A DNA stretch of 64,000 nucleotides from Escherichia virus TH47, in sequence record MT446416.1; one strand, 5' to 3'. Position numbers and translations under genes: made by a program. This document shows, one piece after another, positions 23,497 through 53,794 of the stretch. Below the pieces are notes generated by a model. It worked only from the letters and a program-made list of their open reading frames with translations. It was not told where the DNA came from and did not search any database. How positions within the stretch are numbered: the first letter of the stretch is position 1; each line of letters begins with the position of its first letter.

Positions 23497-23532
23497 AATC
23501 AAATGAATGAACGAATTATATGGAGTCCAAAA

Positions 23533-29500: not shown

Positions 29501-32500
29501 CACCATTGCATTCCAGAACTAAATCTTGTACTGATATTGCTCGTATTATTAAAGAACCAGCACAGCTTAACATTCCTTGGTTTGCACCAATCAATGAAAG
29601 CTCGTTCATTCTAAGTAATATGCAATTTGAAGTCAACGATGACACAAGTATTTTAACTGTTTCTTATTACATGGATAATACTGAAGTTATTAAACATGAC
29701 CAGTATCAATTATGTAAAGAAGGTGATAGCTATAACTTCAATCCATCAATCTGGACTTCTATGTGGAATTCTATGATTGGTCAAGAAACTACTGAATCAG
29801 GAACTGTTATTGATTTACTATATCCTTTAGTACCAAACGGTTTAGGTTCTAATAAGACTTGGTTCCAAGATGTAATTGAAGCTCGTAGAAACTTTGTAGA
29901 AAGTGCAAATAACTATTATCGCTCACAGAATATAACAACTAACACTGTTCTAATGGACGAAGTGTTTAATGTTAAAACTACTGAAGTTAACCCGAATGAA
30001 GTATCATATCGTGTACTAACTTACAATAGTGAATTAGTCATTGCACCTGAAAGTGACAAGTTCAAAGAAAACGACGCAGTACTAGTAAGTACTAGTGGTG
30101 TATTACCTAACCCACTATCAACTAGCTCTGTATATTTTGTGCATATTGATGCTAATGGTTATATTCATCTAATGAATAGCCCATCAAGTGCTGGTAGTGT
30201 GGTTACCATTACATTGGAAAACCGTGGTGAAGGTCAACAGAAAATGATTAAACAATCAGACTATGTTGAAGCACTAGGAACTTCATTGGACATGACCCAG
30301 TACTGGTCACTAGCAGATTGGTATGATATTGGCTACGATAAAAATACTGCATATACACAAGAATCCAGCCTAGAAGATGCAAACACTAAGAACTATCAAG
30401 TTGGTGACATTATCAGAATTACAGATGTTGATGGCATCTGGACATTGTACATTAAAGCACAATCACGTGATTCAGTTTACTGGAAAGCAATTGGTCGTGA
30501 AAATAGTACAGTTGAATTGAATGATATGTTATACGCTGACTATACAGTTCGTGATGCTAATGGTTCGTTGAGTAATCGTGAGATTAACGTTCGTAAAGCA
30601 CTAGCTTTATTGAAGAACTCATTCGATTTACATCAGAGTGAAATTGTGTTTGATATGGTTAAGTATGTTCACGTAGAACAAAGCGTTGTTGATTGGGTAT
30701 TCAAAACATCTTACATTTATATTGTAGGTTTAGAACAATCATTAGTACAGAACTATTCCAACGACAACTTGATTAATCAAATCGTTGAGTACTTTGAAGA
30801 AGTTAAACCATATAGAACTAAGATTCGTTCCCAGATTGAACAGAAAACTTCAGATGATGATTTAATTAAAGGTTTGTGTAATGATTTAGATCCTAATGGC
30901 TATATATTTGCAGATGGGACTTGGGTTAAAACGGAAAAAGACATTTGGGATTATGAATATGCTCAATTCAATGAGGTAACTCAACGTTGGGAGCAAGTTG
31001 GTGAATTGCCAAGTGATTTCGTAACACCTAATCGCCGTTTCCAAGAAATTGATGTTATCATGCACTACGACAACACTCAATGTAAACCAAATGATAATTT
31101 GGCAAGTGTTGATGTATTGGAAGAAGTGAATAAAAAATATCAATCTAATGCACAAGATGTTGTTAGTGATTTTGAATTACAACGTTACAAATATACATTC
31201 CCAGAATACAGTGATGAAGATTTCGACCTATTGGTTGCTTATCAGATGCAATTGTATTACCCAGAATTGAACGTAACTCTAGGGATTGCTTATGGTGTTA
31301 ACCAATGGTATGCAGAACATGCAGATGATTTGGTAGCAACCGCAGAATTCACAGAAACGTTGAATCGTGTATATAAAGAATCAACACAGAATGAAATGTT
31401 TAATGACGTAAATCATTATGTTCAGTATAACACACTCTCTAACCGTTTGAAATTGTACACAGGTGCAGATGATGAAGTAATTCATGATGAGGTTGGATGT
31501 GGATTTAGTGGGTTAACTTACGATGATAATCCAAGCACCAGACTACCGTTTGGTTACGCATCCAGTACTGATTATAACTTTGGTTACTTTGAAGTTAGTA
31601 GTGAGTTGTATAATAAGTATGTTTCTTTAATTAAAGAAAACAATACTACTGCAACTGATGATGAAGTTAGAATTATACTTGAAGTTGAATATGGTGTTTA
31701 TTCATATCGCCATGTAGATGAAGATGGAAATCAACGATTCTACAATGACGCAATTCATGTATTGTCCGGTATGCGTGGTTTGTATGACAAAGATGCTACC
31801 GACCATTATGAAAAGGCTGAAGAAATACTAAGTAGAATGCCTATTGATATTCATGCATTTACTATGATGCCACGAAAATATGTTTATGTTAATGTTAATG
31901 GTGTATACGAGAGTATCCCAGATGACCAAAGCATTGATGATTTCATGGAAGACAAATTCATAACTGACGGTCAACTAGTTCAATTGGCAGAAATAAATCT
32001 TGATGACTTACCTCTTGATAGAAATAACCCAATGTACAGTGATTATCAGCACATCCTAGATAGCATCACCAATGCTAAGTACTACGATGATATGAATGCA
32101 TTTGATAACCTAGCACTTGAATCACAAACTTCCGAGTTAAAATGGGAAGTTGAAGGTGACGAAGTAGATCCGTACATAATCGACATTTCTGATATTAACC
32201 CATCAGGAAGAAAGATTGGTCAGATTCGCTTCACAGTTGATGGTTATGGATTCAATAGTGTTTCACGAGTTCAATTGAGAGACAATAGTAGATATAAAAC
32301 TGAAGGTATGGTTATTATCAACCCTTATAAAACAACAGAAGCAATTGTTAGTATTCCTTCTTACGCTAAGATTGAAAATGATATTAGTAAATCATACAGT
32401 AAGTATGATGAAAAATACTTCTATAAAATTAAATCAATTGTTAGTGATACAGAAGCTGAAGTAATTGACAATACCCTATCTGATGGTGATAAGGTTATGA

Positions 32501-39253: not shown

Positions 39254-39280
39254 GGAGCCAATGGCTCCTTTTTTCTTTTT
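39254..39280. terminator. Bidirectional rho-independent terminator between convergent genes
   Basis: GGAGCC-a-a-TGGCTCC palindrome flanked by A8 and T-rich runs. Confidence 0.6.
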
Positions 39281-40379
39281 ATACCCCAATTAGTGGGATA
39301 CCTGTTATATTAAGTAGAACAGATACTTGAAGCTTAACTGACTCACCTGCCGAAAGGTTGTTTACTATACCATCTACGCGGAACCCTAAGTTTTTATTAG
39401 AGTTAAGAGAGTTAATCACCCAGTTTTCGTAATCCGCTTTTGTAATACCATTCGGATTTGGGAGAGTTGGGTCAACACCATTAATTACCATAGATACATC
39501 CCAATTAGGGCGACTACTTGTAATTACATCCTTGATTGATTCTAGTTGTGTAATGCGACGTGGGTCTGGAATCTGACTTGCACCAATTGAACCAGGAACA
39601 AATTTACCTTGGTTATCAACATAGAACTGACCTTTAATGAAAAATGTTTTTGAATTATACGGAAGAGAAACAATTTCACCTGATGAATCACTAACTTCAC
39701 GAATCATAATTTTCAATTCATAAAAATAGTTACTACCAAATTCAAACACACCAGTACCATTTGTGAATGTTGTCCAGTTATTTGAATCAACCTGTGAAGT
39801 ACCACCCATATTGAAGTAAGCTAATGGCTTAGTACTGTTACTTTGTGTAAATTCAATATATTTCTTACCTGTATCATAGTTGATATCAAGTAGTGTGGAG
39901 TACTCTTTATTTTCTGGACGAGATGTTTGAATTTCACGCCATTCTTTATTTTTCATTAGGACACGAAGGGAATCACCATTACTGGTAAGAACCATACGAC
40001 CCATAATACTATTTTCACCATCTGGTACGGTGTTGAAAATTGAAATCATTGGGATAGATGCCCAGTCAGCTTCAGATGCAGTATCTACTGGCTGACGAGC
40101 ATTATCAACTAATGCAAGAAGTAGTTCGCCAGTGTTGCCAGTATTTCTGTACCAAATCTGACCATTAACGTTACCACGAGGTGCAGTTGCTCCACTGAAG
40201 TTCTCAACCAAGTGGAGGAAGTTTTCGTTCCATGCTTGACCGTAACCAACTTTATTTCGACCTGCAAAGTTTAACGGTACTGGGTTACTACCAGGTTGGT
40301 TTGGTCCTAATATTACGTTATTTGGAATGGTAGCATAAACGCTACCATTACTTCTATAAATTGTATAACTTACACTCAT
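39279..40379 (-). CDS. Hypothetical virion (baseplate/fibre-associated?) protein
   Basis: 366-aa ORF in minus-strand three-gene operon divergent from tail-fibre locus. Confidence 0.4.
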   Translation of the reverse strand: MSVSYTIYRSNGSVYATIPNNVILGPNQPGSNPVPLNFAGRNKVGYGQAWNENFLHLVENFSGATAPRGNVNGQIWYRNTGNTGELLLALVDNARQPVDTASEADWASIPMISIFNTVPDGENSIMGRMVLTSNGDSLRVLMKNKEWREIQTSRPENKEYSTLLDINYDTGKKYIEFTQSNSTKPLAYFNMGGTSQVDSNNWTTFTNGTGVFEFGSNYFYELKIMIREVSDSSGEIVSLPYNSKTFFIKGQFYVDNQGKFVPGSIGASQIPDPRRITQLESIKDVITSSRPNWDVSMVINGVDPTLPNPNGITKADYENWVINSLNSNKNLGFRVDGIVNNLSAGESVKLQVSVLLNITGIPLIGV

Positions 40380-40391
40380 ATCATCACCTTA

Positions 40392-41000
40392 TTATTGTAG
40401 TTGGACACGAACTGTGTATTTGATTTGCAAAACACGGTTAGCACTTTTCTCAACTGGGTGAAAAATAATATGGGTAAGTGGAATACCGCTATCACCATTT
40501 GTATATAAACCCAATTCGTCAAATACATATGTCCCATCCATGCTAGTACCAGAGCTAACACCTTGGTCAGATGGCTCACCTAAACCTAATGTACAAATAC
40601 AGACGATATCAGTGTAAGCTTGGCCTGGAATGTGAACAGTTGTAATGTTGTTATATTGTGAATCAATACCAGCAGAGATACGTGGGTTGATTTTTTTCAG
40701 ATAAGTCTGAGAATATAGACCACCGAAAGAAGTAACGCGTGGTTTCTTGTATGTGATACGACCAGTACTCAAAACTACTGTTCCACCATTACCAAAACGC
40801 ATCTCACTAATAGATCCAATAGGAATACCAGTACTATCTTGATTATAAGCCAACGCATTAGCAATAGCAGTACTCATATTTTCAGGGTGAATTGCGTTTG
40901 ATTTATCCAAAACGATTTTTTGGTTAGATGGATCAGTAACGTCAGTAATTAGTACATGACCCTTAACAAATAGTTTTGGTTGTTCTGTTTCTAATTTCAT
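40392..41000 (-). CDS. Hypothetical structural protein
   Basis: 202-aa ORF, tight spacing with neighbours. Confidence 0.4.
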   Translation of the reverse strand: MKLETEQPKLFVKGHVLITDVTDPSNQKIVLDKSNAIHPENMSTAIANALAYNQDSTGIPIGSISEMRFGNGGTVVLSTGRITYKKPRVTSFGGLYSQTYLKKINPRISAGIDSQYNNITTVHIPGQAYTDIVCICTLGLGEPSDQGVSSGTSMDGTYVFDELGLYTNGDSGIPLTHIIFHPVEKSANRVLQIKYTVRVQLQ

Positions 41001-41009
41001 TTCTAATCC

Positions 41010-41507
41010 TTAGTAGTTAATTAAAATTTGTTCTAACTTACCAGCTAAACTTTTTTGTACATCAGATGGATACTTGCTAATGTAATCACGGTCAATACCA
41101 ACTTTCAGATAGGTAAAGTTTCCGGTTAAGGTTTCAGCGAATGTACCAGTTGTACCTTGTTCTCTAATAAGGTCACCACCATTTGGGTTAAGAATGACAT
41201 TATCAGTAAATTCAAGATAGAAGTTGCAGCTTTCGGTAAATTTAATTGGGAACCAATCATCGTCCGATGGATTACTTGCCAGTGTAGCGAGTACGTAAAT
41301 TCTACCAATGAAGTTACGTAGGGTAAAGGATATTGTATGTAATCCTGTAGTACTACCATAATAGCCGCCACTAGCTAATGATAATGTTTGTTCGTTCCAA
41401 TGATAATCTAAGTTAGCAGGATACCAGCTATCTGATTCAGGAAATTCTTGCCATGAACCATCTTTAGTTTTTCTTTTGAAGAGGAAGTCTTTTGATCTTA
41501 ATGCCAT
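41010..41507 (-). CDS. Hypothetical structural protein
   Basis: 165-aa ORF, first gene of minus-strand operon. Confidence 0.4.
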   Translation of the reverse strand: MALRSKDFLFKRKTKDGSWQEFPESDSWYPANLDYHWNEQTLSLASGGYYGSTTGLHTISFTLRNFIGRIYVLATLASNPSDDDWFPIKFTESCNFYLEFTDNVILNPNGGDLIREQGTTGTFAETLTGNFTYLKVGIDRDYISKYPSDVQKSLAGKLEQILINY

Positions 41508-41573
41508 TGTTAAGCCCTTTTAGTAGTGAACTTTCATTTATTTATTAATGGCAACGAAATGTATTTTGTACTG

Positions 41574-41580
41574 ATAAATA
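41574..41580 (+). promoter_or_regulatory. Candidate late promoter -10 box (gATAAATA) for tail-fibre locus
   Basis: ATAAATA 37 nt upstream of ATG 41617. Confidence 0.35.
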
Positions 41581-41616
41581 TTGGTATATGACATTAACTC
41601 ATACAAGGGAAATATT

Positions 41617-42744
41617 ATGACAATTTCATTCAACAATGGGTCAGGTGGTTCATGTAATAATTCTGGCATCAAAAGTTTAGTTATTAACGCTGCTGGACAT
41701 TTAATTGTAACCTATTCCGACAATACAATCCAAGACCTAGGTCTAGTGGTTGGACAAAATGGTGCTAACGGTAGAAACTTTTATCCAAATGAGATAGGTT
41801 TTGAAGTTCCTAATGAACTCTTCCGTGTTGGTGAAGAACTAGGGTGGTGTTATCTTAGTCTTGCAAATGGCACTAGTACTTTATATTTTAAATCAAACGA
41901 TGCACAAGAAGAAATTAGTACTTGGAACCGTGTAGAGTTTGGTAAAGGTGATACTGGCGAAACTGGTAAACCATTCCACATTGACAGTTCTGGTACGGTG
42001 TTTCCAACAACTGGTCTTTTCAATAATTACACATTCTATAATACTGAAGATGGTAAATTATATTTCTATCAAAGCGTAACTGCAACATGGAGTGATGGTA
42101 TTCCTTTCCGTGGTGAACAAGGTCTACGTGGTCGTTTCCATATTGATAGTACTGGTAGTCAATTCCCAAGTATTGATAATCTACCACAAGATTATTGCTT
42201 CTATAACACTACTGATGGTAATTTGTATTATGTTGATATCGTAACTACATCATCAACCCCAACTAAAGAGTGGAGTGCTGGAATCTTATTCCGTGGTAAA
42301 GACGGTGAAGAAGGTAAGCAAGGTGAGCAAGGTGTTCAGGGTGAACCTGGTAAAGACACAGTTGTTATCATCAACACTATTGATCATTCATGGACTAACG
42401 CATTGTTAGTTATTGGTACATGCCCTGCTGGATACCTAGTAACTAATATCGAAGTTGACATTAATCAAGCATATGATGAACCAGTAAATGAAATGTTTGT
42501 ACGTTTCGGTGGTGAAGCACAAGAAGATATTGGTGGTACTGTAATTGCACCTGTTGATTATTTCGATATCAACCGCAAAATGCGTTACATTGTTAACGAA
42601 ACCAACCACGAAGTATCAAGTAAAGATGAAATCATTTCTTGTGTATTCAATGATTCCGTAAACAACAGTTCATTTGGTGAAATGAAGATCGTTTGTACTT
42701 TATCATGGCAAGCACCTATTCAGCCTATTCAAGATAACATTTAA
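41617..42744 (+). CDS. Tail-fibre-like protein with collagen-like G-X-Y stretch and internal module duplication
   Basis: ORF-track start 41581 is TTG; ATG 41617 with AAGGGA RBS; GKDGEEGKQGEQGVQGEPGKD collagen-like run; two homologous modules (FHIDSSGTVFP...FYNTEDGKLYFY and FHIDSTGSQFP...FYNTTDGNLYYV). Confidence 0.5.
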   Translation: MTISFNNGSGGSCNNSGIKSLVINAAGHLIVTYSDNTIQDLGLVVGQNGANGRNFYPNEIGFEVPNELFRVGEELGWCYLSLANGTSTLYFKSNDAQEEISTWNRVEFGKGDTGETGKPFHIDSSGTVFPTTGLFNNYTFYNTEDGKLYFYQSVTATWSDGIPFRGEQGLRGRFHIDSTGSQFPSIDNLPQDYCFYNTTDGNLYYVDIVTTSSTPTKEWSAGILFRGKDGEEGKQGEQGVQGEPGKDTVVIINTIDHSWTNALLVIGTCPAGYLVTNIEVDINQAYDEPVNEMFVRFGGEAQEDIGGTVIAPVDYFDINRKMRYIVNETNHEVSSKDEIISCVFNDSVNNSSFGEMKIVCTLSWQAPIQPIQDNI

Positions 42745-42758
42745 AAGAGGGTTGATAC

Positions 42759-44900
42759 ATGGCAGTTTTTTCCAATTTAGAAGGGACCATGATGCCAACA
42801 TTCAAGTTGGGTAAACGTGGTGCTTCTATTAATTTTGTAAACGATTCTGTCGCAATCAAAGACTTTTTAGGTGAAACGTTCCTACCTGTTAAGGTGGGAA
42901 CTCCTAATGACGATGATTCCGCAGTAAACGTTATGTATCTTGAAGATAACCCAAATGCTTTATTTGGCGTACTTCCACCAACAAATGACATTGGTAAAAA
43001 TAACAACACTTATTTTCAAGTTGATTCTGAGGGTATTGTTGATATCTTTGCAAAAACAAATGATGTTTGGGTAAAATCATTATACATTAATAAAAATGTC
43101 CTTTCCAGTGTTAACGGTGCTGATTATATCGGACTTATTACTGGAGGAACACTCCAACAGGCACAGTTTTACATAACTCCAGAAGAGTTTGGTGCAAAAG
43201 GTGATGGCATCACTGATGACACGGCAGCGGTTAACGCATGTGCAGTTTATGCAAAAGAACACCAAATCCAAATTCAAGCTGGTGGTAATTATCGTATCAG
43301 AACTGCTGTTTATTTGAATGATATTCAATGGTTTGGTGGAACAATCACTGGCAACGGTGGCACAATGGTATCAGTACTGAATAGTACAATCCAACAAGCA
43401 ACATTAACAGGATGTTATTTAAAATTCTTTGGTGGTGATGGTAAATTTTATTTTAATAAATTTATTAATATTACAAGTACTGCTACATTTCTAATGCAAG
43501 GTATGACTGAATCAGGTACTATCGACTTTTGCTTTAATGAAATGACACAATGTAAGTACGGTGTTCTTCAGCAAGGCACTGGTGAGAAAATGACAGTTGG
43601 GCGTTATTCATACAACCACATCCATGATATATATGGTGATGCAATTGAATTGAACGTAGTCAACTCACATTACCCAGACGGTTTTGTAATAGAAGGTAAC
43701 TTGATTGAAAACGTAGATGGTACAGATGCACCAATTCCTCTTTCAAACTGGGGTATTGGTATCGGCGTTGCTGGTTCTGGTCCTTATGATGTGAATGCTG
43801 ATGATTCACAATATGTAAAAAAATTCGTTATAAAAAATAACCGCTTGTACAATGTCCGTCAATGTATTCACGTTGAGTTGGGTAAAGACTTTAAAATTCT
43901 CAATAATGAAGTTTATCCATCAACGTTGGTATCAATTGGTACTGGTTTGACAACCGCTGGTGTAATTACTTATGGTTCTGTTGATTTTATTATTGATGGC
44001 CTATCTGGGCATCTATTAAATGATCCATCAGTAACTAACCGTATGGTTTCTATTAACTGGGGTGTAACATCTGGTAAATTTGCTGGTCCTCCACGTAACT
44101 TTAAATTATGTAATCTCCACATTCCTGAGTCGTCTATTATTGTGTATACTTCAGGCTCTGATAATTGGCTAAATACTACTGAACTTTCTAATATTACATG
44201 TAGTAGAATTCAATGGCGTGGATTGCCGTCATCTTCCAAGTTTAATAATATCAGTACTAAAGAACTTGATGTTATTGGACAACACCTTGCAACTGAAGGT
44301 GAAGGAGGGGGCTTATATACTCGCTCTAAATATACATATACCAACTGGACTAATTGTGTTGTTCAAGATGATTGTAACATATCAAAATATAGTTTCTCAA
44401 GAATGTATGTTGACCGTATTGACCAATCATCTAATAACTTTAAAGTAACCACTGCAATTGATGGAACTGGACATCGTGGACCTGTAGTAATACCTGTAGT
44501 TGAACAGTATTACGTGCCTTATGATGTTTTTCCTGGTGGGAGATATTTCCCAGAAGGAACAATTATCCATAAACAATCAGGTGGAAAATTTATTGTTACA
44601 GTAGGTGGTTCTTTCTTTGGTCGATATGACACAATTAGACAAACAGTTGCAGGACAAACTTATATCGAAGCATTGGGTGTATCATGGGGTGATAATCAAT
44701 ATGCTAAAGCTGCTGGAACCGAAATCCTAATCACAGGAGCAGGGGAAAACGGCGAAGATTTAAAAACATATATCACTAGAGCAGTTTATGTTGTTAATAA
44801 TGCGTATCGTATCGATATTGCCGATCCGATTGTTACTGCTACCGCAGCAGGGGCATTATTGAAAGCTGCTCAACCAATAACATATATCACCCTATCTTAA
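42759..44900 (+). CDS. Tailspike/depolymerase-like protein with pectate-lyase-type beta-helix domain
   Basis: 713 aa; EEFGAKGDGITDDTAAVNA hallmark of right-handed beta-helix polysaccharide lyase/hydrolase tailspikes; N-terminal MAVFSNLEGTM module shared with next gene. Confidence 0.65.
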   Translation: MAVFSNLEGTMMPTFKLGKRGASINFVNDSVAIKDFLGETFLPVKVGTPNDDDSAVNVMYLEDNPNALFGVLPPTNDIGKNNNTYFQVDSEGIVDIFAKTNDVWVKSLYINKNVLSSVNGADYIGLITGGTLQQAQFYITPEEFGAKGDGITDDTAAVNACAVYAKEHQIQIQAGGNYRIRTAVYLNDIQWFGGTITGNGGTMVSVLNSTIQQATLTGCYLKFFGGDGKFYFNKFINITSTATFLMQGMTESGTIDFCFNEMTQCKYGVLQQGTGEKMTVGRYSYNHIHDIYGDAIELNVVNSHYPDGFVIEGNLIENVDGTDAPIPLSNWGIGIGVAGSGPYDVNADDSQYVKKFVIKNNRLYNVRQCIHVELGKDFKILNNEVYPSTLVSIGTGLTTAGVITYGSVDFIIDGLSGHLLNDPSVTNRMVSINWGVTSGKFAGPPRNFKLCNLHIPESSIIVYTSGSDNWLNTTELSNITCSRIQWRGLPSSSKFNNISTKELDVIGQHLATEGEGGGLYTRSKYTYTNWTNCVVQDDCNISKYSFSRMYVDRIDQSSNNFKVTTAIDGTGHRGPVVIPVVEQYYVPYDVFPGGRYFPEGTIIHKQSGGKFIVTVGGSFFGRYDTIRQTVAGQTYIEALGVSWGDNQYAKAAGTEILITGAGENGEDLKTYITRAVYVVNNAYRIDIADPIVTATAAGALLKAAQPITYITLS

Positions 44901-44914
44901 AGGAGATTATAAAA

Positions 44915-45814
44915 ATGGCAGTTTTTTCTAATTTAGAAGGAACCATGAAGAAGACCTTCATACTTGGTAAAAATGGTGCACAAATTGCCACTAATGGTAA
45001 TGTTGTTCAAATCCAGAACTACACGGGTACACAACTTCTTCCTGTTTCAGCAGGTGACCCAACCGCAAATACACACTTGGTTACATTGGGTTATTTGAAT
45101 ACACATAGCGGTGGTGGTGGCGGTTCCGGTATTTTACGTGGAACTATTGCACCATCTGAATCAATTGGTGTAGATGGTGACGCTTACTTCTTAGTTGACA
45201 GTACTAATATTATTCAGATCTATATTAAAGACCTTGGTGTTTGGAAACCTCTCCAAAGCACAACTCCAGGTACTGATAGTTCTTACGTTACTACTGAAAT
45301 CGTTCCTGTATCGGCATTTACATTAGTTCCTGGAACAACAGATCAATATACTTATTCTTTACCTGAATCAGTACATGGTCGTGGTCCAGATATTATGGTT
45401 CAGCTACAGGGTGACCCTGGTAACATCCCACTTGACACTGTATTCCAAACTAACGTCACTGTGAGTGGTATTGGTGACATTACGATTGATGTTATTGGTC
45501 AAATCACTGATTATACAAGTGTCAAAGTCAACATCATAGGAGCAACAACAATGACAGTACCTTATAGTAAATTAATTAACCAAGCGGATTGGGTAGTATC
45601 TAGTGATGAATACACCATTACTATCCCAGCGTCTGAACATAACCAAACACCTGATAATTTGTATATTTCAATTTATTCAAATAAAACTCCAGGTAGCACA
45701 GCAGCATCACCATTTGAACTGGTAATAACCGAAACTCAAATTGATGCAAGTGGTAATGTTACATTCACTTCTGACGAAGCGTTTAGTGGTAAAATAGTAA
45801 TTTCTGGTAAATAA
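44915..45814 (+). CDS. Tail fibre/spike protein paralog sharing N-terminal anchor domain
   Basis: Same N-terminal MAVFSNLEGTM...LGK.GA...LPV motif (first 33 nt nearly identical to 42759) with unrelated C-terminal region; AAGGAG RBS. Confidence 0.55.
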   Translation: MAVFSNLEGTMKKTFILGKNGAQIATNGNVVQIQNYTGTQLLPVSAGDPTANTHLVTLGYLNTHSGGGGGSGILRGTIAPSESIGVDGDAYFLVDSTNIIQIYIKDLGVWKPLQSTTPGTDSSYVTTEIVPVSAFTLVPGTTDQYTYSLPESVHGRGPDIMVQLQGDPGNIPLDTVFQTNVTVSGIGDITIDVIGQITDYTSVKVNIIGATTMTVPYSKLINQADWVVSSDEYTITIPASEHNQTPDNLYISIYSNKTPGSTAASPFELVITETQIDASGNVTFTSDEAFSGKIVISGK

Positions 45815-45822
45815 AAAAAATA

Positions 45823-45857
45823 GTCCAGACTACGATTCATCGAGTCTGGATTTTTTA
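45823..45857 (+). terminator. Rho-independent terminator
   Basis: TCCAGACT-acgattcatcg-AGTCTGGA hairpin followed by T6. Confidence 0.6.
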
Positions 45858-45932
45858 TATCAATAACTAAATATATGTATATTAACAAGGTCAAATGTAT
45901 TTTATGCTTTTTGCCTATTTGGAGGGAACTAA

Positions 45933-48900
45933 ATGTACTCGATTAAAACAGATCTCGATATAACTGGTGGTGCAACGGTTGGTAAAGATCTTCTTGTGAA
46001 AGGCGATGCAGTATTCAATAAAAATCTAACAGTTAATGGAACCGTAACTTTTGCTGACGCTGTATTCACTGCGATTGAAGCAGGAACTGTAGACATTTCA
46101 TCTACACTAGATGTTGCTGGTAAAGCATCATTGAATGGTGGGATTGAAGTTCATGGTAATTCCGTAATTGGTAATTTACCAGTTGGCTCTGATACTGCAA
46201 CGATTAATTCTAATGCACAATTCCAAAGCCCAGTATCAATGGCAGGTAACCTAACACAAACGGCTGGCACTGCTGTACTAAAAGATACCCAAGTGGCATC
46301 AATGGATGTTCTTGGAACTTCTTCATTTAAAGGTAATATTACTGCTGAAACTGGCACTACCGCAGCATTTGACAAAATAACTGCAACTGATGCAACATTC
46401 ACAAACACTGCAACTACTGATATCACATCAACTGGAACTGCAAACTTTAAAGATGTGAATATTTCCGGTACACTAGGTGGAACATTTAGTCTATCTGATG
46501 TTAATGCAACAACTCTAACTGTTTCTGGTTTAACCAGTCTACAAGGTGGTGTTACATTAGGTTCCAACATTACTGGTGTGAATAGTAGTGCAAACTTCCG
46601 TGATATTAAAATTGGTTCCAATGCTGCAAACACTAACTACCGTTTGAGCTTTAACTATTCTGCTCCAAGTCTTCGTCCAACTGTAATTCTACAGAACGAA
46701 ATCCAATCAGAATTGATGTCTCCAGCTACCCTAAGTGTATTGAAAACTGCATCTTTTGGTGATTCGTCATTATCCACTTTTGGTATTACTGGTAATGGTC
46801 TAAACAAACTAGATTACCTAACAGTATCTGGTAACTCTGTTCAAGATCCAACAACTCCACTATTACAAGTAACTTCAGGTAAAACTAAAGTTCATGATTT
46901 CGAAGTAACAGGAACTGCAACTATTCCTAACATTGAAAGTACTGGAACTGCTAATTTTAATAACATCAACGTATCTGGTACACTCGGCGGTACTTTCAGT
47001 CTTGATGATATTGAAGCAAACACTCTAACTGTTTCTGGATTAACTAGCCTTGTTGGTGGTGTAACTTTGGGTGCTGATATTTCCGGTGCTAATAGTACTG
47101 CTAATTTTAAAGCAGTAAGTTTAGGACAAAACGCAGCCGATGCTAACGTTAAGTATGGTTTTGCTTATTCTGCCCCTGGTGCACGTCCAACTGTAATTCT
47201 ACAAAATGAAATTCAGTCTGAACTAGTATCTCCAGCAGTACTAAATGTACAAAAAACTGCTACCTTCGGTGATGCATCTCTTGCAACCTATGGTATCACA
47301 GGTAACGGTCTAAACAAACTAGATTATCTATCTATTACTGGTAATGGTACACAAAGTCCAGCAACGCCACAACTACAAGTAGCTGGTAAATCAGTACTAA
47401 ATGATGTTGAATTCACTGGTACTGTAACTGGCCTAACAGTTGATGTAAGTGGTCAAGACCTAACTCCTAAATCTGTTGTTGCTGCTGAAGCAATCAAAGG
47501 ACAAACCCTTGAATCTGTTGGTCAAACCACCGTAGGAACTAACCTACAAGTTGGTGGAACAGCTAATGTTGTTGGTGCACTAACTGGTACTGCTGCAACC
47601 TTTACTGGTGACGTAAGTGCTGCTAAAGGTACTTTCAGTGGTGATGTTAGCGTTACTGGGCAAACTGTAACTGTACGTGATTTAGTAGTAACTGGCACAA
47701 CTACTGGTGTAACTGCCCAAGCTGACGTTGATGGTCTTGATATCGCCCCAAATAAAGTTGATGTTACAACAACACTATCTGTTGCTGGGGACACTACTTT
47801 AGCTGGTCTAACTGCTAGTTCAGTAACAAGTACTGGTGATGTTACTGGTGCGTCTGTATCTGGTAATACAGTAACTGCGGCTGGTGCACTATCTGGTGGT
47901 TCTCTTGCAGTAACTGGTGCTGGTTCTATGGCTTCACTAACTGTTCCAAGTATTACTGGGGACACTACTTTTGCTAATAACGTAACTATTACTGGAACAC
48001 TAACTCCGAGTAGTATAGATTTAAGCACTACTGATGTAAGTGCTGCTTCTTTAACAACTACTGGTAACGTAACTGTTGGTGGTTCTCTTGCAGTAACTGG
48101 TGCTATTGATTTGTCTGCTGCTGATGTAGTAACAAAATCAGTTAGTGCAACTAACCCAAGTACATTTGGTGTAATTAATGCATCTTCTGTTGCCGCAACT
48201 GGTGACGTTTCAGGTGGCACTCTAACTACTACTGGTGCAGCGAAAGTAGGAACACTAACTAGTACTGGTGTAGTATCTGGTTCGCGTTTGTCTTCTGGTA
48301 CTGCAACAATCTCAACTTCTGTAACAGTTCCAACTTTACAAGCTGAAGCTGCTGGTGCTGGTACACTAAATCTAGCAAGTAATGTTGTCGCGGCAAAAGA
48401 TCTAACTGTCACTGGTGTATTCAAACCTGAAGGTGGTCTTGACCTAACAACTGTTGATATTACTGCAAACTCACTAACTACTACTGCTGATGTTAATGTT
48501 GGTGGAAACTTAGTAGTTGATGGTACTTTTGACCTAAGTGCTGCTGATGTATCAGTTAAATCTCTTGTAAGTGCAGAGGCAATTACTAGTGGTGGTGTGA
48601 TTACCGTTACCGATTCAACCAATACTAGTTCGTTCCCTAAAATTACTTCAACTGATGCAACACTCTTTACAGTAAATGCAGGTACTATTAATGCAACTGG
48701 CAACAGTGTACTACAAAGTGTATCAGCTACTCAAGTAACTGCTACTAGTGCTGAATTTTCTGGTAGTGGCCTTGGTCTTCAAGTTGATAATGATGCAAAC
48801 GTTGGTGGTGCATTATCTGTTGGTGGCATTGCAACTGTTGGTTCTTTAACAACAACTGCTGCTTCTCTTAATATTGCAAAAAATACTGCAATCAATGGTG

Positions 48901-50891
48901 ATTTAGCTGTATCTGGTACACTAACTGCTGGTTCAATCGACCTAAGCAATACTGATGTAACCGTTAAATCTCTTGATTCACTAGGTAACGCACACATTGC
49001 TGGTAACCTAACTGTTGATGGTGCATTCGACTTAAGTGCAACTAACCTTGTAGCTGCAAGTCTAGCAAGTACTGGTTCTACTACTGTTGGAACTGATCTA
49101 GTACTAACAACTGGTGTTGTGACTGGTAGCCCAGCTATCTCTGGTAATACAACAATCGGTGGAACTCTTGGTGTAACTGGTGCTGTTAACCTAACTGATA
49201 TTGTTAATATCGGTAAGAAAGTAACAGTGAGTACTGGTGGTATTCAGGTAGTTGATGGTGGTATCAATACTAACACAATTAACGTTTCTGGTGCTACTAC
49301 TCTAGCAGGAACTTCCATTACTGGAACTTTAGGTGTAACTGGTGCTTCTACTCTAGCAGGTGTATCTGCAACATCACTAACAGTTTCTGGTGACAGTACT
49401 GTTCAGAAACTAACTGTCCAAGGTGAATTGATCCCACAAGGTGGTCTTGACCTAAGCGGTGCAGACATTACTGCTAATAGTCTAACTACTGCAACAACTA
49501 TCAATGCAACTGGCCTAAGTACTCTAAGTGGTGGTGTTAGTACTTCTACTGTGACTGCATCTGGTCTAGCAACTGTTGGAAGTTTAACTTCTACTGCAAA
49601 CGCATCAGTTGGTGGTAATTTGGGTGTAACTGGAACTCTAGGTGTTACTGGTGCAACTACTGTATCTTCACTAACAGCTACTGGTGCAGTGAAAACTGGT
49701 ACAACCCTAACTGTTGGTACTCCAGTTGGTGAACAACCTGAAACTGTACAGATCATTCCAGATACTTATATTGCTGGTAAATTGCGTGTAATCGGCGGTA
49801 TTAACGCTGATATTGATGTTAGTGGTCAAACACTAGAACCATATGCAATTGAAGCTGCTGCAACACTATCTGCTGTTGGTAACATTACTTCTGGTGCAAC
49901 CATCGTTTCTAAAGCTGCAACAATTGGTGATGTTGGTTCACAAAACAACAACCTAACTGTTAATGGTAACGTAGTAACTAATGGTGACTTCACAGTTACT
50001 GGGGTACTAAATGCACAATTGAACCAAGCAGATTCCGATGTAGCTGTTAAATCTTTAACTGCAACTAATAACGTTGCGGCTGGTACTTCAATCACTGCTG
50101 GTACTTCCATCACTGCAACTGGATTACTTAAAGGTAATACTTTAGAAGTTACTACTACTGGTTCATTTGGTGGTGCAGTAACTATGTCAAGTGGTGCAAA
50201 CATCACTGGTACAGTGGGTATTACTGCTGGTGACCTAACAGTAGGTGGTAATATCTCTGCAACTGGCACTGCTGGATTCGGTGCAACAACCGTTTCTACA
50301 ATTACAACATCAGGTTTGGCTACACTTGCAAGTACATCCGTTACTGGTAACGCAACAGTAGGTGGAACACTAGCAGTAACAGGAGCACTAACTGCGAATG
50401 GTAACGTAACATTAGGTGACGCAGCGGCTGACGTTCTAACCGTTAATGCAACTTCATCATTTAAAGAAAATGCTGTGTTTGATAAGGCAGTAACAGTAAC
50501 TGGTGAACTAACCACTACTAATGCTAACTTAACTACTACAACAGTAACTACCAAAAAGTATGATGTAATCCCAACTCAAGTTACATCATCAGTAATTGCT
50601 CCAACCGGAACATGGACTCCAGATGGTACAAGTAACGTGTACTTCATCACTCTAGACCAAGATACCACGTTGGCTCCAATTACTGGCCTAATTGGTGGCG
50701 GTAAAGCTGCATCAGTATACATCTATGTTAAACAAGATACAACTGGTAACAGAAACTTTACAACTGATGGTACTTATGCTGTTGTTGATGGTGAACTAAA
50801 CAAAACTGCTGGTAGCGTGACCATTTACCAAGTAATTTATGATGGTGTAAGTCCAGTTACTGATTTGTTCATTGCACAACGTACTGCTTAA
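45933..50891 (+). CDS. Giant repetitive fibrous protein (1652 aa), long tail fibre or whisker-like
   Basis: GGAGGG RBS; extremely Thr/Gly/Ala/Val/Ser/Asn-rich beta-type low complexity with repeated about 35-aa modules and a 170-aa tandem duplication; followed by chaperone-like gene. Confidence 0.6.
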   Translation: MYSIKTDLDITGGATVGKDLLVKGDAVFNKNLTVNGTVTFADAVFTAIEAGTVDISSTLDVAGKASLNGGIEVHGNSVIGNLPVGSDTATINSNAQFQSPVSMAGNLTQTAGTAVLKDTQVASMDVLGTSSFKGNITAETGTTAAFDKITATDATFTNTATTDITSTGTANFKDVNISGTLGGTFSLSDVNATTLTVSGLTSLQGGVTLGSNITGVNSSANFRDIKIGSNAANTNYRLSFNYSAPSLRPTVILQNEIQSELMSPATLSVLKTASFGDSSLSTFGITGNGLNKLDYLTVSGNSVQDPTTPLLQVTSGKTKVHDFEVTGTATIPNIESTGTANFNNINVSGTLGGTFSLDDIEANTLTVSGLTSLVGGVTLGADISGANSTANFKAVSLGQNAADANVKYGFAYSAPGARPTVILQNEIQSELVSPAVLNVQKTATFGDASLATYGITGNGLNKLDYLSITGNGTQSPATPQLQVAGKSVLNDVEFTGTVTGLTVDVSGQDLTPKSVVAAEAIKGQTLESVGQTTVGTNLQVGGTANVVGALTGTAATFTGDVSAAKGTFSGDVSVTGQTVTVRDLVVTGTTTGVTAQADVDGLDIAPNKVDVTTTLSVAGDTTLAGLTASSVTSTGDVTGASVSGNTVTAAGALSGGSLAVTGAGSMASLTVPSITGDTTFANNVTITGTLTPSSIDLSTTDVSAASLTTTGNVTVGGSLAVTGAIDLSAADVVTKSVSATNPSTFGVINASSVAATGDVSGGTLTTTGAAKVGTLTSTGVVSGSRLSSGTATISTSVTVPTLQAEAAGAGTLNLASNVVAAKDLTVTGVFKPEGGLDLTTVDITANSLTTTADVNVGGNLVVDGTFDLSAADVSVKSLVSAEAITSGGVITVTDSTNTSSFPKITSTDATLFTVNAGTINATGNSVLQSVSATQVTATSAEFSGSGLGLQVDNDANVGGALSVGGIATVGSLTTTAASLNIAKNTAINGDLAVSGTLTAGSIDLSNTDVTVKSLDSLGNAHIAGNLTVDGAFDLSATNLVAASLASTGSTTVGTDLVLTTGVVTGSPAISGNTTIGGTLGVTGAVNLTDIVNIGKKVTVSTGGIQVVDGGINTNTINVSGATTLAGTSITGTLGVTGASTLAGVSATSLTVSGDSTVQKLTVQGELIPQGGLDLSGADITANSLTTATTINATGLSTLSGGVSTSTVTASGLATVGSLTSTANASVGGNLGVTGTLGVTGATTVSSLTATGAVKTGTTLTVGTPVGEQPETVQIIPDTYIAGKLRVIGGINADIDVSGQTLEPYAIEAAATLSAVGNITSGATIVSKAATIGDVGSQNNNLTVNGNVVTNGDFTVTGVLNAQLNQADSDVAVKSLTATNNVAAGTSITAGTSITATGLLKGNTLEVTTTGSFGGAVTMSSGANITGTVGITAGDLTVGGNISATGTAGFGATTVSTITTSGLATLASTSVTGNATVGGTLAVTGALTANGNVTLGDAAADVLTVNATSSFKENAVFDKAVTVTGELTTTNANLTTTTVTTKKYDVIPTQVTSSVIAPTGTWTPDGTSNVYFITLDQDTTLAPITGLIGGGKAASVYIYVKQDTTGNRNFTTDGTYAVVDGELNKTAGSVTIYQVIYDGVSPVTDLFIAQRTA
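46431..47450 (+). repeat. Tandem direct duplication (2 x about 510 bp) inside fibre gene
   Basis: Units begin at 46431 and 46941 with the same ACTGGAACTGC...TTTAA...ACACT.GG.GG.AC.TT.AGTCT...GAAGCAAACACTCTAACTGTTTCTGG pattern; protein repeats TGTANFKDVNISGTLGGTFSL... / TGTANFNNINVSGTLGGTFSL... Confidence 0.6.
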
Positions 50892-50911
50892 TAATTATAA
50901 TAAAAAAAACG

Positions 50912-50935
50912 GTGTCATCAATTATGGTGACACCA
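50912..50935 (+). terminator. Possible terminator hairpin (weak U tract)
   Basis: GGTGTCA-tcaattatgg-TGACACC stem-loop after stop at 50891; T-run weak. Confidence 0.3.
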
Positions 50936-50957
50936 TCTTAACAAGTGAGGTAGTTAT

Positions 50958-51737
50958 ATGTTTACATATGTAAAAGGTAGTTCTAAAGAAAATTATGAAT
51001 TGGGTAACATCATCTCCAACCCAGTTGGTGTTAAGGGTTTAAAAGAACGCCCTGGGGCAACTCCAGATGATGAACAAACATATCGTTATTTGTACAGTGA
51101 TATTCGTGCACTTTATGGTATTTCAAGTAAAGATGGTTCTGAAATTGAACCTAATAACGCTGTTCGCAAAGAAGAGGGTTTCTGGTGGTTGGAATATAAG
51201 AATGTTGGTAATGTGAACGCAATTAATGAGAATTTGGAATATATTAAACTACAAGATAGTAATCAACCAGTCATCACATTCTTAGAAGAAGCAGAAGGTG
51301 AATATAAAGAGTTAACAGTACTGAAAACTTATAATTATGTTGATATGGACATTGCAGCAGTTAAATCTGATCTGAAAGCACGCACAGTATCATCTCGTAG
51401 TGATCGTATTAATGCTGGTTATATGTTTAACGGTCATCGTTATAGTACTGATCTAGCTGGTCGTCAAATGCTTCTTAATTATTATACACAAGTAACTTCC
51501 GGTTCTGATAGCGTTTCGATTTTCCTTGATGACGCAATTGTAAAACTATCTGCTGCTGAAATGACTCAACTATACACTGAAGCATTTGCTATGGTTGAAT
51601 CCCTATTTGCAGAGTGTAATAAGCAATGTGCTGACATTGATGCAGTTCCTGATGCTGATGAAGATGCAATTTATAAAGCACAACAGGCGGCTGTATGGGT
51701 ATATGAAGGTATTGATATTCCTGAGCGTACTCGTTAA
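50958..51737 (+). CDS. Putative tail-fibre assembly/chaperone-like protein
   Basis: 259 aa immediately downstream of giant fibre gene; C-terminal region reminiscent of tail-fibre-assembly-like proteins; weak assignment. Confidence 0.35.
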   Translation: MFTYVKGSSKENYELGNIISNPVGVKGLKERPGATPDDEQTYRYLYSDIRALYGISSKDGSEIEPNNAVRKEEGFWWLEYKNVGNVNAINENLEYIKLQDSNQPVITFLEEAEGEYKELTVLKTYNYVDMDIAAVKSDLKARTVSSRSDRINAGYMFNGHRYSTDLAGRQMLLNYYTQVTSGSDSVSIFLDDAIVKLSAAEMTQLYTEAFAMVESLFAECNKQCADIDAVPDADEDAIYKAQQAAVWVYEGIDIPERTR

Positions 51738-51753
51738 TTTATATTTTTTTTAA

Positions 51754-51781
51754 AGGTCAACTATGGTTGGCCTTTTCTTTT
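51754..51781 (+). terminator. Rho-independent terminator
   Basis: AGGTCAAC-tatg-GTTGGCCT hairpin (one G-U pair) followed by TTTTCTTTT. Confidence 0.5.
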
Positions 51782-51788
51782 ATCTAAA

Positions 51789-51795
51789 ATAAATA
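51789..51795 (+). promoter_or_regulatory. Candidate late promoter -10 box (aATAAATA)
   Basis: ATAAATA 35 nt upstream of ATG 51830. Confidence 0.3.
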
Positions 51796-51829
51796 CTTAA
51801 TATATAATCTATTCTGAGGAAATATTTAA

Positions 51830-53794
51830 ATGAGTATAAATCGAATTAGAGGTGATGGTGGTGTAATTATAGATAGTCAGGCATTTCTAGAATTACCTAA
51901 AGCACCGACTAAAGAAACCGCTGATGTGGTTAGATCAGGGATGATTAGATACAATAAAGGATGGAAAGCATTTGAAGGTGTACTAGACTTTGAAGATGGT
52001 TCAATGGCATATCGACGTTTTGCAAACCTAGATGCGAACGGTAAACTTCTTACTTCCCAATTACCAGATTCAGTAACTAGTGGTTTACAATTTGTTGGTA
52101 CATATAATCCCATCCCAGATGATATCGATCCACCTTTAGCACAAACTCCACTACCAGCACCATCACCATCGCTTAATGGTGATTATTATGTCGTTCGTGG
52201 TATAATGGATGCCGCACAAGCACATTATGAAGCAAATAATCCACAAACAAGTCCTGTTACATTTACACCTACAAATCCAACTGGACAAGGTAATTGGATT
52301 GAAATTTTATATTATGTTGACTCTAATCCAAATATATCTGGTGCTAAACTAGTAACATACGCTTTTGCTAGAATTATTACTGCATCTATTCCCAGTACTG
52401 GACATGATGGCCTTGAAAATTTAGCAACAGATACTGACTTGACCAAACCATTTGCATCTGGTGTTCCAATGAACCAAACTGCACTTTCAGATGGCGATTG
52501 GATTATTATAACTGAAGATAAGAATATACGTCTTCGTCAGTCAAGAACAAGCATTTCCGCTGCTTCAGTATTATATGACAATACTGTAATGATTGCAAAT
52601 CATCGTCAATTTAGAACAAACGCAGGGACCGTTCAAACATCCATAGATAACGTTGTGATTGAGTGTTTACGTAGAACTGGCGATTCCATGTATAATGATG
52701 GAACAGACGGCTCTGGGCGTTTTGGGGTGGTGTATGGCAGTGCAGCAGCACCAGCATTGACATTTAATAATAATCCGTTTGACCCAACGAATAACCCAGG
52801 TAATGACCCAACTAAGTGGTCCGATGCTAATACTGGTATATTTCATCCATCCGATGACGCAATTGGGTTCAGCACTGCTGGCACAGAACGTGTTCGAATT
52901 AATAATGGAACACTAACATTATTCCAAACTACCGCTACACCAGCAGCTACGCCAGTAATACGTTTTGATAATGCATCAAACACAAACGTAGGGATAAGTG
53001 CAAGTAGTAATATTATTTCTTTAAGTTCAATGAATAAAGTTCAAGTTGAATTTAAAAATGGTGAATCACATTTTCATGGAAATATTATTGTAGATGGTTC
53101 AACATCACTAACTGGTGATTTAGACGCAGGTAACATCAATGCCAGCGGGAATTTAGTTGTTAAAGGTAATACAACACTAGGTGACACTACTGGTGACACT
53201 ATTACAGTTAATGGTGTTAGTACTTATAATGCAAATACTAATTTCAATGGAACTAATAACAAATTCAAAAACATAAACTTACTAGAGAATGGTGTATTCA
53301 CATTAGAAAGTACTACAAACCAAAGTGATATAAAACTACTTGGTGCAGACTTACGTTTCACTATGGGAAGTTATGCTGATGTAAGTATATATGATAACGG
53401 TGTTATTCGTACTCGTTTCAACCGATATGGTATTCAATTACCAGTACTGGCTACAATTGATAACTCGGTTGGTGTTGATGGTATGATTGCATACTCAAAT
53501 ACCGAACGTACATCGATGCAGAAGGTTCAAGGACAATGGGTTCCAATTGGTTCTGGTTCTGTTCGTACTGACCCGTTTGTTGCGTCAGCGTGGGTTTTAA
53601 ACGGCTCATATTACACATTAACAGTAACTGCTAGTAACATAGTAACTGCTGAAATTCAAGAACTCGTAAGTACTGGTGTTTACACTCGTGTTGAAGTTGA
53701 TAGTGTTACATTCAATGGAACAAGCGTAGTGTTCAGTATCCCTGCAACTCCTGATGTGAGATTTGCCGGACGTACACTGGTTACATTAAGATAA
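51830..53794 (+). CDS. Tail fibre protein
   Basis: 654 aa; N-terminal LELPKAPTKETADVVRSGMIRYNKGWKAFEG resembles conserved phage tail-fibre N-terminal motif; Gly/Asn/Thr-rich C-terminal region; GAGGA RBS. Confidence 0.5.
   Translation: MSINRIRGDGGVIIDSQAFLELPKAPTKETADVVRSGMIRYNKGWKAFEGVLDFEDGSMAYRRFANLDANGKLLTSQLPDSVTSGLQFVGTYNPIPDDIDPPLAQTPLPAPSPSLNGDYYVVRGIMDAAQAHYEANNPQTSPVTFTPTNPTGQGNWIEILYYVDSNPNISGAKLVTYAFARIITASIPSTGHDGLENLATDTDLTKPFASGVPMNQTALSDGDWIIITEDKNIRLRQSRTSISAASVLYDNTVMIANHRQFRTNAGTVQTSIDNVVIECLRRTGDSMYNDGTDGSGRFGVVYGSAAAPALTFNNNPFDPTNNPGNDPTKWSDANTGIFHPSDDAIGFSTAGTERVRINNGTLTLFQTTATPAATPVIRFDNASNTNVGISASSNIISLSSMNKVQVEFKNGESHFHGNIIVDGSTSLTGDLDAGNINASGNLVVKGNTTLGDTTGDTITVNGVSTYNANTNFNGTNNKFKNINLLENGVFTLESTTNQSDIKLLGADLRFTMGSYADVSIYDNGVIRTRFNRYGIQLPVLATIDNSVGVDGMIAYSNTERTSMQKVQGQWVPIGSGSVRTDPFVASAWVLNGSYYTLTVTASNIVTAEIQELVSTGVYTRVEVDSVTFNGTSVVFSIPATPDVRFAGRTLVTLR

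Follow-up and report, generated by a model that had tools for sequence, protein, structure and literature searches.

How do two neighbouring phage tail genes that begin almost identically come to encode proteins that otherwise have nothing in common, and does the shared beginning serve the exchange of host-range determinants? The question is raised by two consecutive genes, here called g1 and g2, in a 64,000-nucleotide stretch of DNA from Escherichia virus TH47 (sequence record MT446416.1; this whole stretch will henceforth be referred to as the window, and all coordinates count from its first letter). A preliminary description, made from the sequence alone, had proposed that positions 42759-45814 form a receptor-binding protein cassette in which a common N-terminal anchor carries different, exchangeable distal domains. 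We found that g1 and g2 are paralogous solely in an autonomous N-terminal module of about 105-110 amino acids (aa). The explanation that we favour, with a probability of roughly 0.7, is that the module is a shared anchor and that g1 is a lineage-specific colanidase chimera placed on a conserved socket of the type used by g2. The two genes are:

42759..44900, plus strand: g1, predicted chimeric colanidase tailspike, 713 aa (anchor followed by a phi92-type colanidase body)
44915..45814, plus strand: g2, virion structural protein, 299 aa (anchor followed by two immunoglobulin (Ig)-like domains; no earlier in-frame start)

Both proteins start with MAVFSNLEGTM, and BLASTP aligns aa 1-104 of g1 with aa 1-110 of g2 at 41% identity and 53% positives (E = 2e-19), with a single 6-residue gap. 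Identity is unevenly distributed along the module (18/22 residues in aa 1-22, 12/42 in aa 23-64 and 15/40 in aa 65-110), and homology spans the whole of the ~105-110 aa, with the extreme N-terminus by far the best conserved part. The ~110-aa homologous module of the preliminary description is thus real, and the similarity reaches well beyond the first few codons. Past the module, BLASTP found no similarity between the two proteins (next best E = 0.83), in agreement with the earlier view that their distal parts are unrelated. We also ran the search for further anchor copies which that description had suggested: in the window, tblastn, a motif regular expression and hidden Markov models (HMMs) of the sub-modules described below, run against all six-frame open reading frames (ORFs), returned none beyond these two, while among 71 related phage records tblastn with the anchors matched at two sites per genome in 35 and at a single site in the others. 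Besides RaK2-like jumbo phages, only some uncultured relatives carry the module.

What follows the module in g1 closely resembles a known tailspike. Specifically, aa 96-712 of g1 match phi92 gp150 (PDB 6E0V/6E0W, chain residues 11-623) with a phmmer E-value of 3.8e-233, and the match to phrog_6117, annotated as “colanic acid degradation”, has an E-value of 1.6e-251 and aligns from aa 94 onwards. Close relatives annotate the g1 homolog as a colanic acid-degrading protein or colanidase tailspike. The 804-aa gp159 of Justusliebigvirus ECGD1 is 57% identical to g1 over 617 aa, starting at aa 96 of g1 and aa 189 of gp159 (BLASTP); this homology becomes solid at Y108 (YINKNVLSS in g1, YVEKNLLSS in gp159), and the first 188 aa of gp159 showed no similarity to aa 1-95 of g1 in the same comparison. 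With W104 as the last residue of g1 that resembles g2 and solid phi92-like homology from Y108, the junction between the two parts is at most 5 residues wide. In an AlphaFold2 model of aa 1-170 of g1, the predicted local distance difference test score (pLDDT) lies between 84 and 94 over aa 11-110 and is below 50 at residue 111 and beyond, in agreement with the junction mapped by alignment, although the low values past residue 110 may partly reflect the shallow alignment depth of the neck. The parts of g1 on either side of this point are thus delimited by:

43069..43082, plus strand: fusion junction, g1 ~aa 104-108 (DVW/VKSLY/INKNVLSS; W104 is the last residue in the homology of g1 with g2, and pLDDT falls at residue 111)
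43080..44897, plus strand: predicted colanidase body of g1, aa 108-713 (neck, beta-helix and C-terminal domain)

The body has homologs in 254 phage records spread over many unrelated groups, with identities of 57% in Justusliebigvirus, 37% in Seunavirus, 34% in Phapecoctavirus, about 32% in ~40-kb coliphages and 27% in GAP32, where the gene lies at a different locus. Judging by this distribution, the colanidase body behaves as a mobile module. We regard g1 as a probable polysaccharide depolymerase of the beta-helix type and a predicted colanidase. The preliminary description had called it a pectate-lyase-type beta-helix depolymerase; the depolymerase part of that claim gains from the phi92 gp150 match, the sequence FGAKGDGITDDTAAVNA is indeed carried by g1, and g1 also has a weak match to Pfam PF12708 (Pect-lyase_RHGA_epim), confined to aa 143-227 and below the gathering cutoff (E = 6e-4; 20.1 bits against a cutoff of 27). 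A look-up of the exact g1 sequence in public assemblies returned no record.

The distal part of g2 is of another kind. It had been described as a glycine-rich fibre domain, a view that did not survive the analysis: the structural model contains two Ig-like beta-sandwiches, the glycine run lies inside the anchor, and the glycine content of the distal 185 aa is 7.6%, compared with 14.9% in the anchor. A weak internal repeat was also detected in the distal part (E = 8e-6). The two domains are:

45287..45538, plus strand: Ig-like beta-sandwich 1 of g2, aa ~125-208 (AlphaFold2 pLDDT ~80-95)
45563..45808, plus strand: Ig-like beta-sandwich 2 of g2, aa ~217-298 (AlphaFold2 pLDDT ~80-95)

Far from being variable, g2 is conserved along its full length: it belongs to phrog_10468, “virion structural protein” (E = 1.9e-92), and 66 homologs align at 100% coverage with 44-97% identity in phages of five host genera, namely Escherichia, Salmonella, Cronobacter, Yersinia and Erwinia. 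Its homolog CBB_227 was detected in purified CBB virions by electrospray ionisation tandem mass spectrometry (ESI-MS/MS), with 5 unique peptides and 32% coverage (PMC5259590). The position of g2 between a ~375-aa tail protein and the long tail fibre is likewise conserved across RaK2-like phages. Rather than the variable receptor-binding cassette that had been proposed, g2 therefore appears to belong to the conserved virion core of RaK2-like phages as a whole.

The anchor itself consists of two parts, a ~65-aa sub-module A and a ~40-aa four-stranded beta-meander, sub-module B. In sub-module A the first ~22 residues, MA[VI]FSNLEGTM..F.LGK.G, are nearly invariant, and the segment ends in a helix with the pattern P....H.VT..Y. 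The corresponding stretches of the two genes are:

42759..42950, plus strand: g1 sub-module A, aa 1-64 (MAVFSNLEGTM..F.LGK.G, beta-hairpins and a P....A.N..YL helix; sub-module A HMM E = 2e-29)
42957..43076, plus strand: g1 sub-module B, aa 67-106 (G..P....G....Y..VD..I..I..K....W; sub-module B HMM E = 2.5e-21)
44915..45106, plus strand: g2 sub-module A, aa 1-64 (sub-module A HMM E = 2.4e-36, and alignments)
45110..45130, plus strand: glycine-rich linker GGGGGSG of g2, aa 66-72, within the anchor (pLDDT below 50 for aa 51-70)
45131..45244, plus strand: g2 sub-module B, aa 73-110 (sub-module B HMM E = 4e-23)

In g1, sub-module A is modelled with a pLDDT of 84-93 over aa 11-60, and sub-module B as four strands with a pLDDT of 85-94; in g2, the strands of sub-module B lie at residues 73-76, 90-94, 99-106 and 109-112 (pLDDT ~77-82). 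The GGGGGSG linker is an insertion which, in the alignment, both g1 and the RaK2 protein ORF061w lack. The anchor is modelled confidently, and no Pfam or PDB counterpart was detected for it. Sub-module B bears a weak resemblance to propeller-blade repeats (designer propellers in the PDB, per-repeat E > 30) and to the collagen XV trimerisation domain. One alternative should be considered here, namely that the module is mainly an oligomerisation or folding unit, presumably for trimers, that starts the assembly of two unrelated proteins, with any attachment to the virion taking place elsewhere or through the first ~20 residues only; we consider this unlikely, and prefer to see in the module a presumed virion-docking element.

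To see how g1 and g2 are distributed, related phages were compared over this region, as the preliminary description had suggested. The jumbo coliphages WPEC5, fEgEco12, WPEC3, Turkey3, BF17, vB_Ec-M-J and Ecwhy_1 are 98-99% identical to positions 41500-46000 of the window, and 121Q, PBECO4, phAPEC6 and SP27 about 80% identical; the window can thus be assigned on sequence grounds to an Asteriusvirus-like jumbo coliphage of the RaK2-like clade. A ~375-aa tail protein always precedes an anchor protein, be it in 121Q, Turkey5, A4, RaK2, GAP32, Munch, EJP2, CBB or a metagenomic contig. In GAP32, Munch, EJP2 and CBB this tail protein is followed by the g2 homolog and the long tail fibre, with no colanidase in between, and g1 is present only in genomes of the 121Q/PBECO4/A4 type. 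Being limited to these genomes and missing at the syntenic position elsewhere, g1 is a lineage-specific insertion.

The smallest version of g2 is found in RaK2 and K64-1-type Klebsiella phages, in which the homolog is the anchor alone (ORF061w, 115 aa; RaK2 segment 9001-9513), with no remnant of the Ig-like domains. RaK2 also lacks the adjacent long-tail-fibre gene and the homolog of GAP32_219, the next gene being the homolog of GAP32_218; the absence of a CBB_226 homolog from RaK2 has been reported previously (PMC5259590). That the g2 distal domains and the fibre are lost together suggests a possible functional connection. A metagenomic contig with the same synteny has g2 orthologs of about 200 aa that carry one Ig-like domain, and both anchor-only and one-Ig forms are also present in metagenomes. 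The full two-part anchor is therefore known in four natural forms (bare, with one Ig-like domain, with two, and with a colanidase), which indicates that the module is autonomous. Four bodies on a complete anchor, however, amount to one fusion event and not to a hypervariable cassette.

To see how widely the anchor is used, we searched 1.84 billion representative proteins exhaustively with its profile; the 374 matches at E <= 1e-3 fell into three classes. In the first class, the whole module is N-terminal; it comprises 13 representatives, with lengths of 113-294 aa plus one 723-aa colanidase (P0084). The second class matches profile positions 1 to ~70 only, always at the extreme N-terminus, and comprises 18 unrelated representatives of 99-1366 aa. 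The third class, many large proteins, matches positions ~65-115 alone, often 5-15 times per protein; these multiple stretches were not counted as anchor homologs, as sub-module B resembles generic repeats of the propeller-blade type. A narrower homolog search with the anchor profile returned 12 short proteins and was uninformative about the diversity of distal domains.

Within the second class, sub-module A is joined to a pectate-lyase-like helix and a Peptidase_S74 chaperone in P0094, to a different Beta_helix in P0097 and to a BNR propeller in P0102 and its relatives. P0094 and P0097 come from one fibre cluster on a 120-kb contig (Logan SRR18476386_53), with 41% identity between their N-termini over 148-175 aa; the arrangement of the window therefore has a second, independent instance in this pair. 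The two spikes (780 and 705 aa) belong to an uncultured phage and are separated by fibre-like genes of 902, 199 and 919 aa. Both have precomputed matches to PF27114 (“Phage_tail_beta”), which was not returned by our local Pfam scan of P0094 and P0097; that copy of Pfam probably lacks the family. Among cultured phages, the N-terminus of P0094 hit 71 records with a genus breakdown equal to that of the RaK2-like set found with the window anchors. A tblastn search with P0102 against cultured phages gave short C-terminal matches only, meaning that carriers of the BNR type are uncultured. The idea of an exchangeable adaptor thus stands in part, given that the colanidase body recurs in 254 records and sub-module A heads other spikes, but not in its strong form, as a single fusion was seen and no hypervariable cassette.

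These observations also allow a more ambitious, tentative proposal, to which we give clearly less credence than to the one stated at the outset: the ~110-aa module may be an autonomous plug domain for a dedicated baseplate socket of RaK2-like phages, which can be used bare, with one or two Ig-like domains or with a depolymerase, and whose first ~65 aa would form a docking sub-domain of wider use in uncultured phages, bearing other beta-helix spikes and BNR propellers there. If true, equivalent sites would be occupied by g1 and g2 in competition or in alternation, and the module might offer a generally usable means of equipping jumbo phages with new enzymes.

The near-identity of the two starts raises the question of whether it is maintained by recombination. 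At the DNA level it takes the form of a direct repeat of 83 nucleotides (nt) with 76% identity and a spacing of 2156:

42741..42823, plus strand: direct repeat copy 1, ribosome-binding site and first 65 nt of g1
44897..44979, plus strand: direct repeat copy 2, ribosome-binding site and first 65 nt of g2

Such a repeat, which covers both start regions and matches at 31/33 positions in the first 33 nt of the genes, could suggest that ongoing gene conversion keeps the 5' ends alike and that they serve as a recombination site for swaps of distal cassettes, a role that had been proposed for them; recombination between paralogs also seems to occur in the neighbouring long-tail-fibre gene (see below). 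The detail of the repeat nevertheless makes this explanation highly improbable. Its core measures 34 nt with 2 mismatches and its longest exact run only 14 nt, and amino-acid identity past residue 22 falls to about 30-38%. The start of g1 in the window is as close to g2 of GAP32 as to g2 of its own genome (31/33 in both cases, with the same 2 nt differing), and the N-termini of g1 in 121Q and Turkey5 have the changes L7F and A2S, while the g2 orthologs agree with each other and lack them. Finally, none of the 71 related genomes has a deletion or swap variant generated at the site. As identity within a genome is no higher than between genera, we rejected concerted evolution of the 5' ends; their similarity reflects purifying selection that acts across the family on the N-terminal peptide and perhaps also on the region of translation initiation. 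In the window, 121Q, Turkey5 and GAP32, the first 33 nt of g2 (44915-44947) are identical (33/33). This identity includes synonymous positions, with GAP32 belonging to a different genus and the full proteins being only ~54% identical, and there may be a nucleotide-level constraint on the initiation region of g2.

The origin of the g1 anchor can be narrowed down by its distances. Anchors of the g1 type are 32-43% identical to g2-type anchors of every genus, their own genome included, while g2-type anchors are 48-69% identical to each other across genera. Being equidistant from all g2 anchors, the g1 anchor is not a recent copy of the resident g2; it either diverged fast after an old duplication or was imported from an unsampled relative.

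The scenario that we favour combines these elements as follows. The module would fix each protein to the baseplate or tail-fibre hub and would probably aid oligomerisation, with the invariant first ~22 residues as the chief part of docking. The g2 protein, consisting of the anchor and two Ig-like domains, would be the ancestral core virion protein of the whole clade. In an ancestor of the 121Q/PBECO4-type Asteriusviruses, a diverged copy of the anchor would have been joined at W104-Y108 to a phi92-type colanidase body, whose neck, beta-helix and C-terminal parts would have been acquired horizontally, and the chimera would have entered the genome between g2 and the gene for the upstream tail protein, the three genes being presumably co-transcribed. 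The g1 protein would then use the same type of socket and its colanidase would clear the colanic acid slime layer of Enterobacteriaceae, with the conserved Ig-like protein and the long tail fibres remaining as they were.

Several observations weigh against this scenario. The PHROGs database places the g1 family under “moron/auxiliary”, the two-part anchor is known with one enzymatic body only, such that frequent cassette exchange is not demonstrated, and the g1 anchor evolves faster than the enzyme that it carries (65% versus 88% identity for Turkey5, and 77% versus 88% for 121Q). Together with its equal distance from all g2 anchors, this faster evolution means that the g1 anchor may bind a different or looser site than that of g2. 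Some of the same facts favour another explanation, namely that g1 is a soluble enzyme, freed at lysis, which degrades colanic acid around neighbouring cells, and that its anchor is left over from the fusion and decaying. In addition to the PHROGs category, this would fit the rate of evolution of the g1 anchor, which exceeds that of the g2 anchor and that of the enzyme body (55.7-76.9% versus 63.2-88.3% identity), the absence of g1 virion proteomics from the literature that we found and the annotation of the gene in pieces in vB_Ec-M-J and CMSTMSU. A decaying relic, however, is hard to reconcile with an anchor that all ~35 genomes, the divergent A4 included, retain whole and with every family-invariant residue in place, and that models as a well-folded domain. 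The gene, moreover, is embedded in the tail module, with structural genes 14 nt away on both sides, and its closest characterised homolog, phi92 gp150, was deposited and annotated as a tailspike. We thus consider the soluble enzyme improbable, and infer that g1 is virion-borne.

Two sets of records deserve comment in this context. The phAPEC6 record (MK817115.1, segment 4246-7453) has no coding sequence (CDS) for either the colanidase or the g2 homolog, with gp254 and gp255 missing between gp253 and gp256. As its DNA is ~80% identical to the window and the record simply lacks both CDSs, the absence of these proteins from the published virion proteome is uninformative, and we discarded it as evidence against their presence in virions. 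In vB_Ec-M-J (segment 13260-15402) the colanidase gene is annotated as two CDSs, and in CMSTMSU (329127-329475) a 120-aa query from the N-terminus of g1 matches in three pieces; these frameshifts could be sequencing errors or pseudogenisation.

How does this arrangement compare with known systems? The g1 body is homologous to phi92 gp150 and its Justusliebigvirus orthologs across the whole of the crystallised protein, and presumably has the same fold and substrate. By contrast, the N-terminal particle-binding regions differ, ECGD1 gp159 having an unrelated stretch of 188 aa where g1 has a 104-aa anchor of the RaK2 type, and so do the hosts of these genes, a ~148-kb myovirus in the phi92 case and a 350-380-kb jumbo phage in that of g1. 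In tailspikes of the P22/Sf6/HK620 type, a short N-terminal particle-binding domain is joined sharply to horizontally exchanged beta-helix enzymes. The junction in g1 is similarly sharp; however, the P22/Sf6/HK620-type variants occur in different phages, whereas g1 and g2 are two paralogs in one genome, and we found no sequence or fold similarity between the g1/g2 anchor and the domains of these tailspikes.

A closer functional analogy is offered by phages with several receptor-binding proteins (RBPs) built on a conserved N-terminal anchor, such as TSP1-4 of CBA120, gp63.1 and gp66 of G7C, the Klebsiella phages of the KP32 type and gp526-534 of RaK2 (PMC6872550, PMC10253068). Here too, adjacent proteins share an N-terminal assembly module and differ in their distal domains, and depolymerase bodies pass by horizontal transfer from one phage group to other, unrelated ones, as the g1 body does. 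The analogy ends with g2, a conserved Ig-like protein and no depolymerase, and branching is not indicated for g1 and g2; nor were folds like T4 gp10, the D1, D2 and XD domains of CBA120 or the TSP4 anchor domain detected in their N-terminal region. An anchor domain of 105 aa specific to alcyoneusviruses, with no homologs reported outside them, has been described in RaK2 gp528 (PMC10253068). The g1 and g2 anchors have no match in the RaK2 gp526-534 locus, tblastn finding only ORF061w, in one place per RaK2 or K64-1 genome. The family to which g2 belongs (phrog_10468, including GAP32_221 and CBB_227) differs from it in no substantive way: g2 is a full-length member at the conserved position, and the number of distal Ig-like domains is 0 in RaK2, 1 in the ~200-aa forms and 2 in the window.

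The remainder of the tail module provides the setting in which the chimera was placed. In order along the window, the neighbours of g1 and g2 are:

upstream part of the tail module, before g1: gp15-like sheath completion protein
upstream part of the tail module, before g1: NUDIX gene
39279..40379, 40392..41000 and 41010..41507, minus strand, between the NUDIX gene and the collagen-motif tail protein: three structural genes of 366, 202 and 165 aa
41617..42744, plus strand: collagen-motif tail protein, 375 aa, ATG at 41617 (phrog_13565, tail protein, E = 2.8e-213, aligned aa 13-387)
45933..50891, plus strand: long-tail-fibre proximal subunit, 1652 aa (phrog_4549, tail fiber, E = 1.9e-200; annotations of relatives)

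For the collagen-motif tail protein, the mechanical ORF begins at TTG 41581 (387 aa), while the PHROG alignment and the annotations of all relatives point to ATG 41617 (MTISFNN...). Its homolog CBB_228 and the long tail fibre CBB_226 were both found in CBB virions by ESI-MS/MS (PMC5259590). By synteny only, this 375-aa protein is a candidate docking partner of the anchor. A module common to it and g2, which a 375-aa BFVD match had prompted us to consider, was rejected (best BLASTP E = 0.89). The intergenic gaps flanking g1 are 14 nt and each gene has its own Shine-Dalgarno sequence; counts of promoters and terminators around the genes were at or below the shuffled expectation, with none above chance. 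The short gaps and the absent promoter and terminator signal are consistent with g1 having joined the same transcription unit.

Further upstream, a 3332-aa ORF (window 23503-33501, plus strand) is annotated as “virion structural protein” in vB_Ec-M-J. Downstream, vB_Ec-M-J has two tandem long-tail-fibre paralogs with 72-77% mutual identity (window 45933-51925 compared with vB_Ec-M-J segment 16435-28502). The single fibre gene of the window resembles paralog 1 in its 5' part (98%) and paralog 2 at its 3' end (92%), and the two matches overlap by ~740 bp (window 49631-50369), which amounts to a ~5.4-kb indel among phages that are ~98% identical. Recombination between the paralogs could account for this indel, as could a tandem duplication.

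The conceptual gain from these results is small, since an anchor with exchangeable distal domains is a well-established principle. The anchor domain itself, however, is so far undescribed: in the Asteriusvirus literature that we searched, the colanidase is mentioned as an annotation only and the shared module is described nowhere. The analysis provides a domain map for two tail proteins of jumbo coliphages of the 121Q/PBECO4 group, which are considered for therapy, comprising a probable attachment part (aa 1-104 of g1, aa 1-110 of g2), a junction at W104-Y108 and an apparently acquired phi92-type colanidase. That g2 appears to be a core component and not a determinant of host range matters for predicting or engineering the host range of these phages, and a domain family without counterpart in Pfam or the PDB could serve to graft new depolymerases onto RaK2-like virions.

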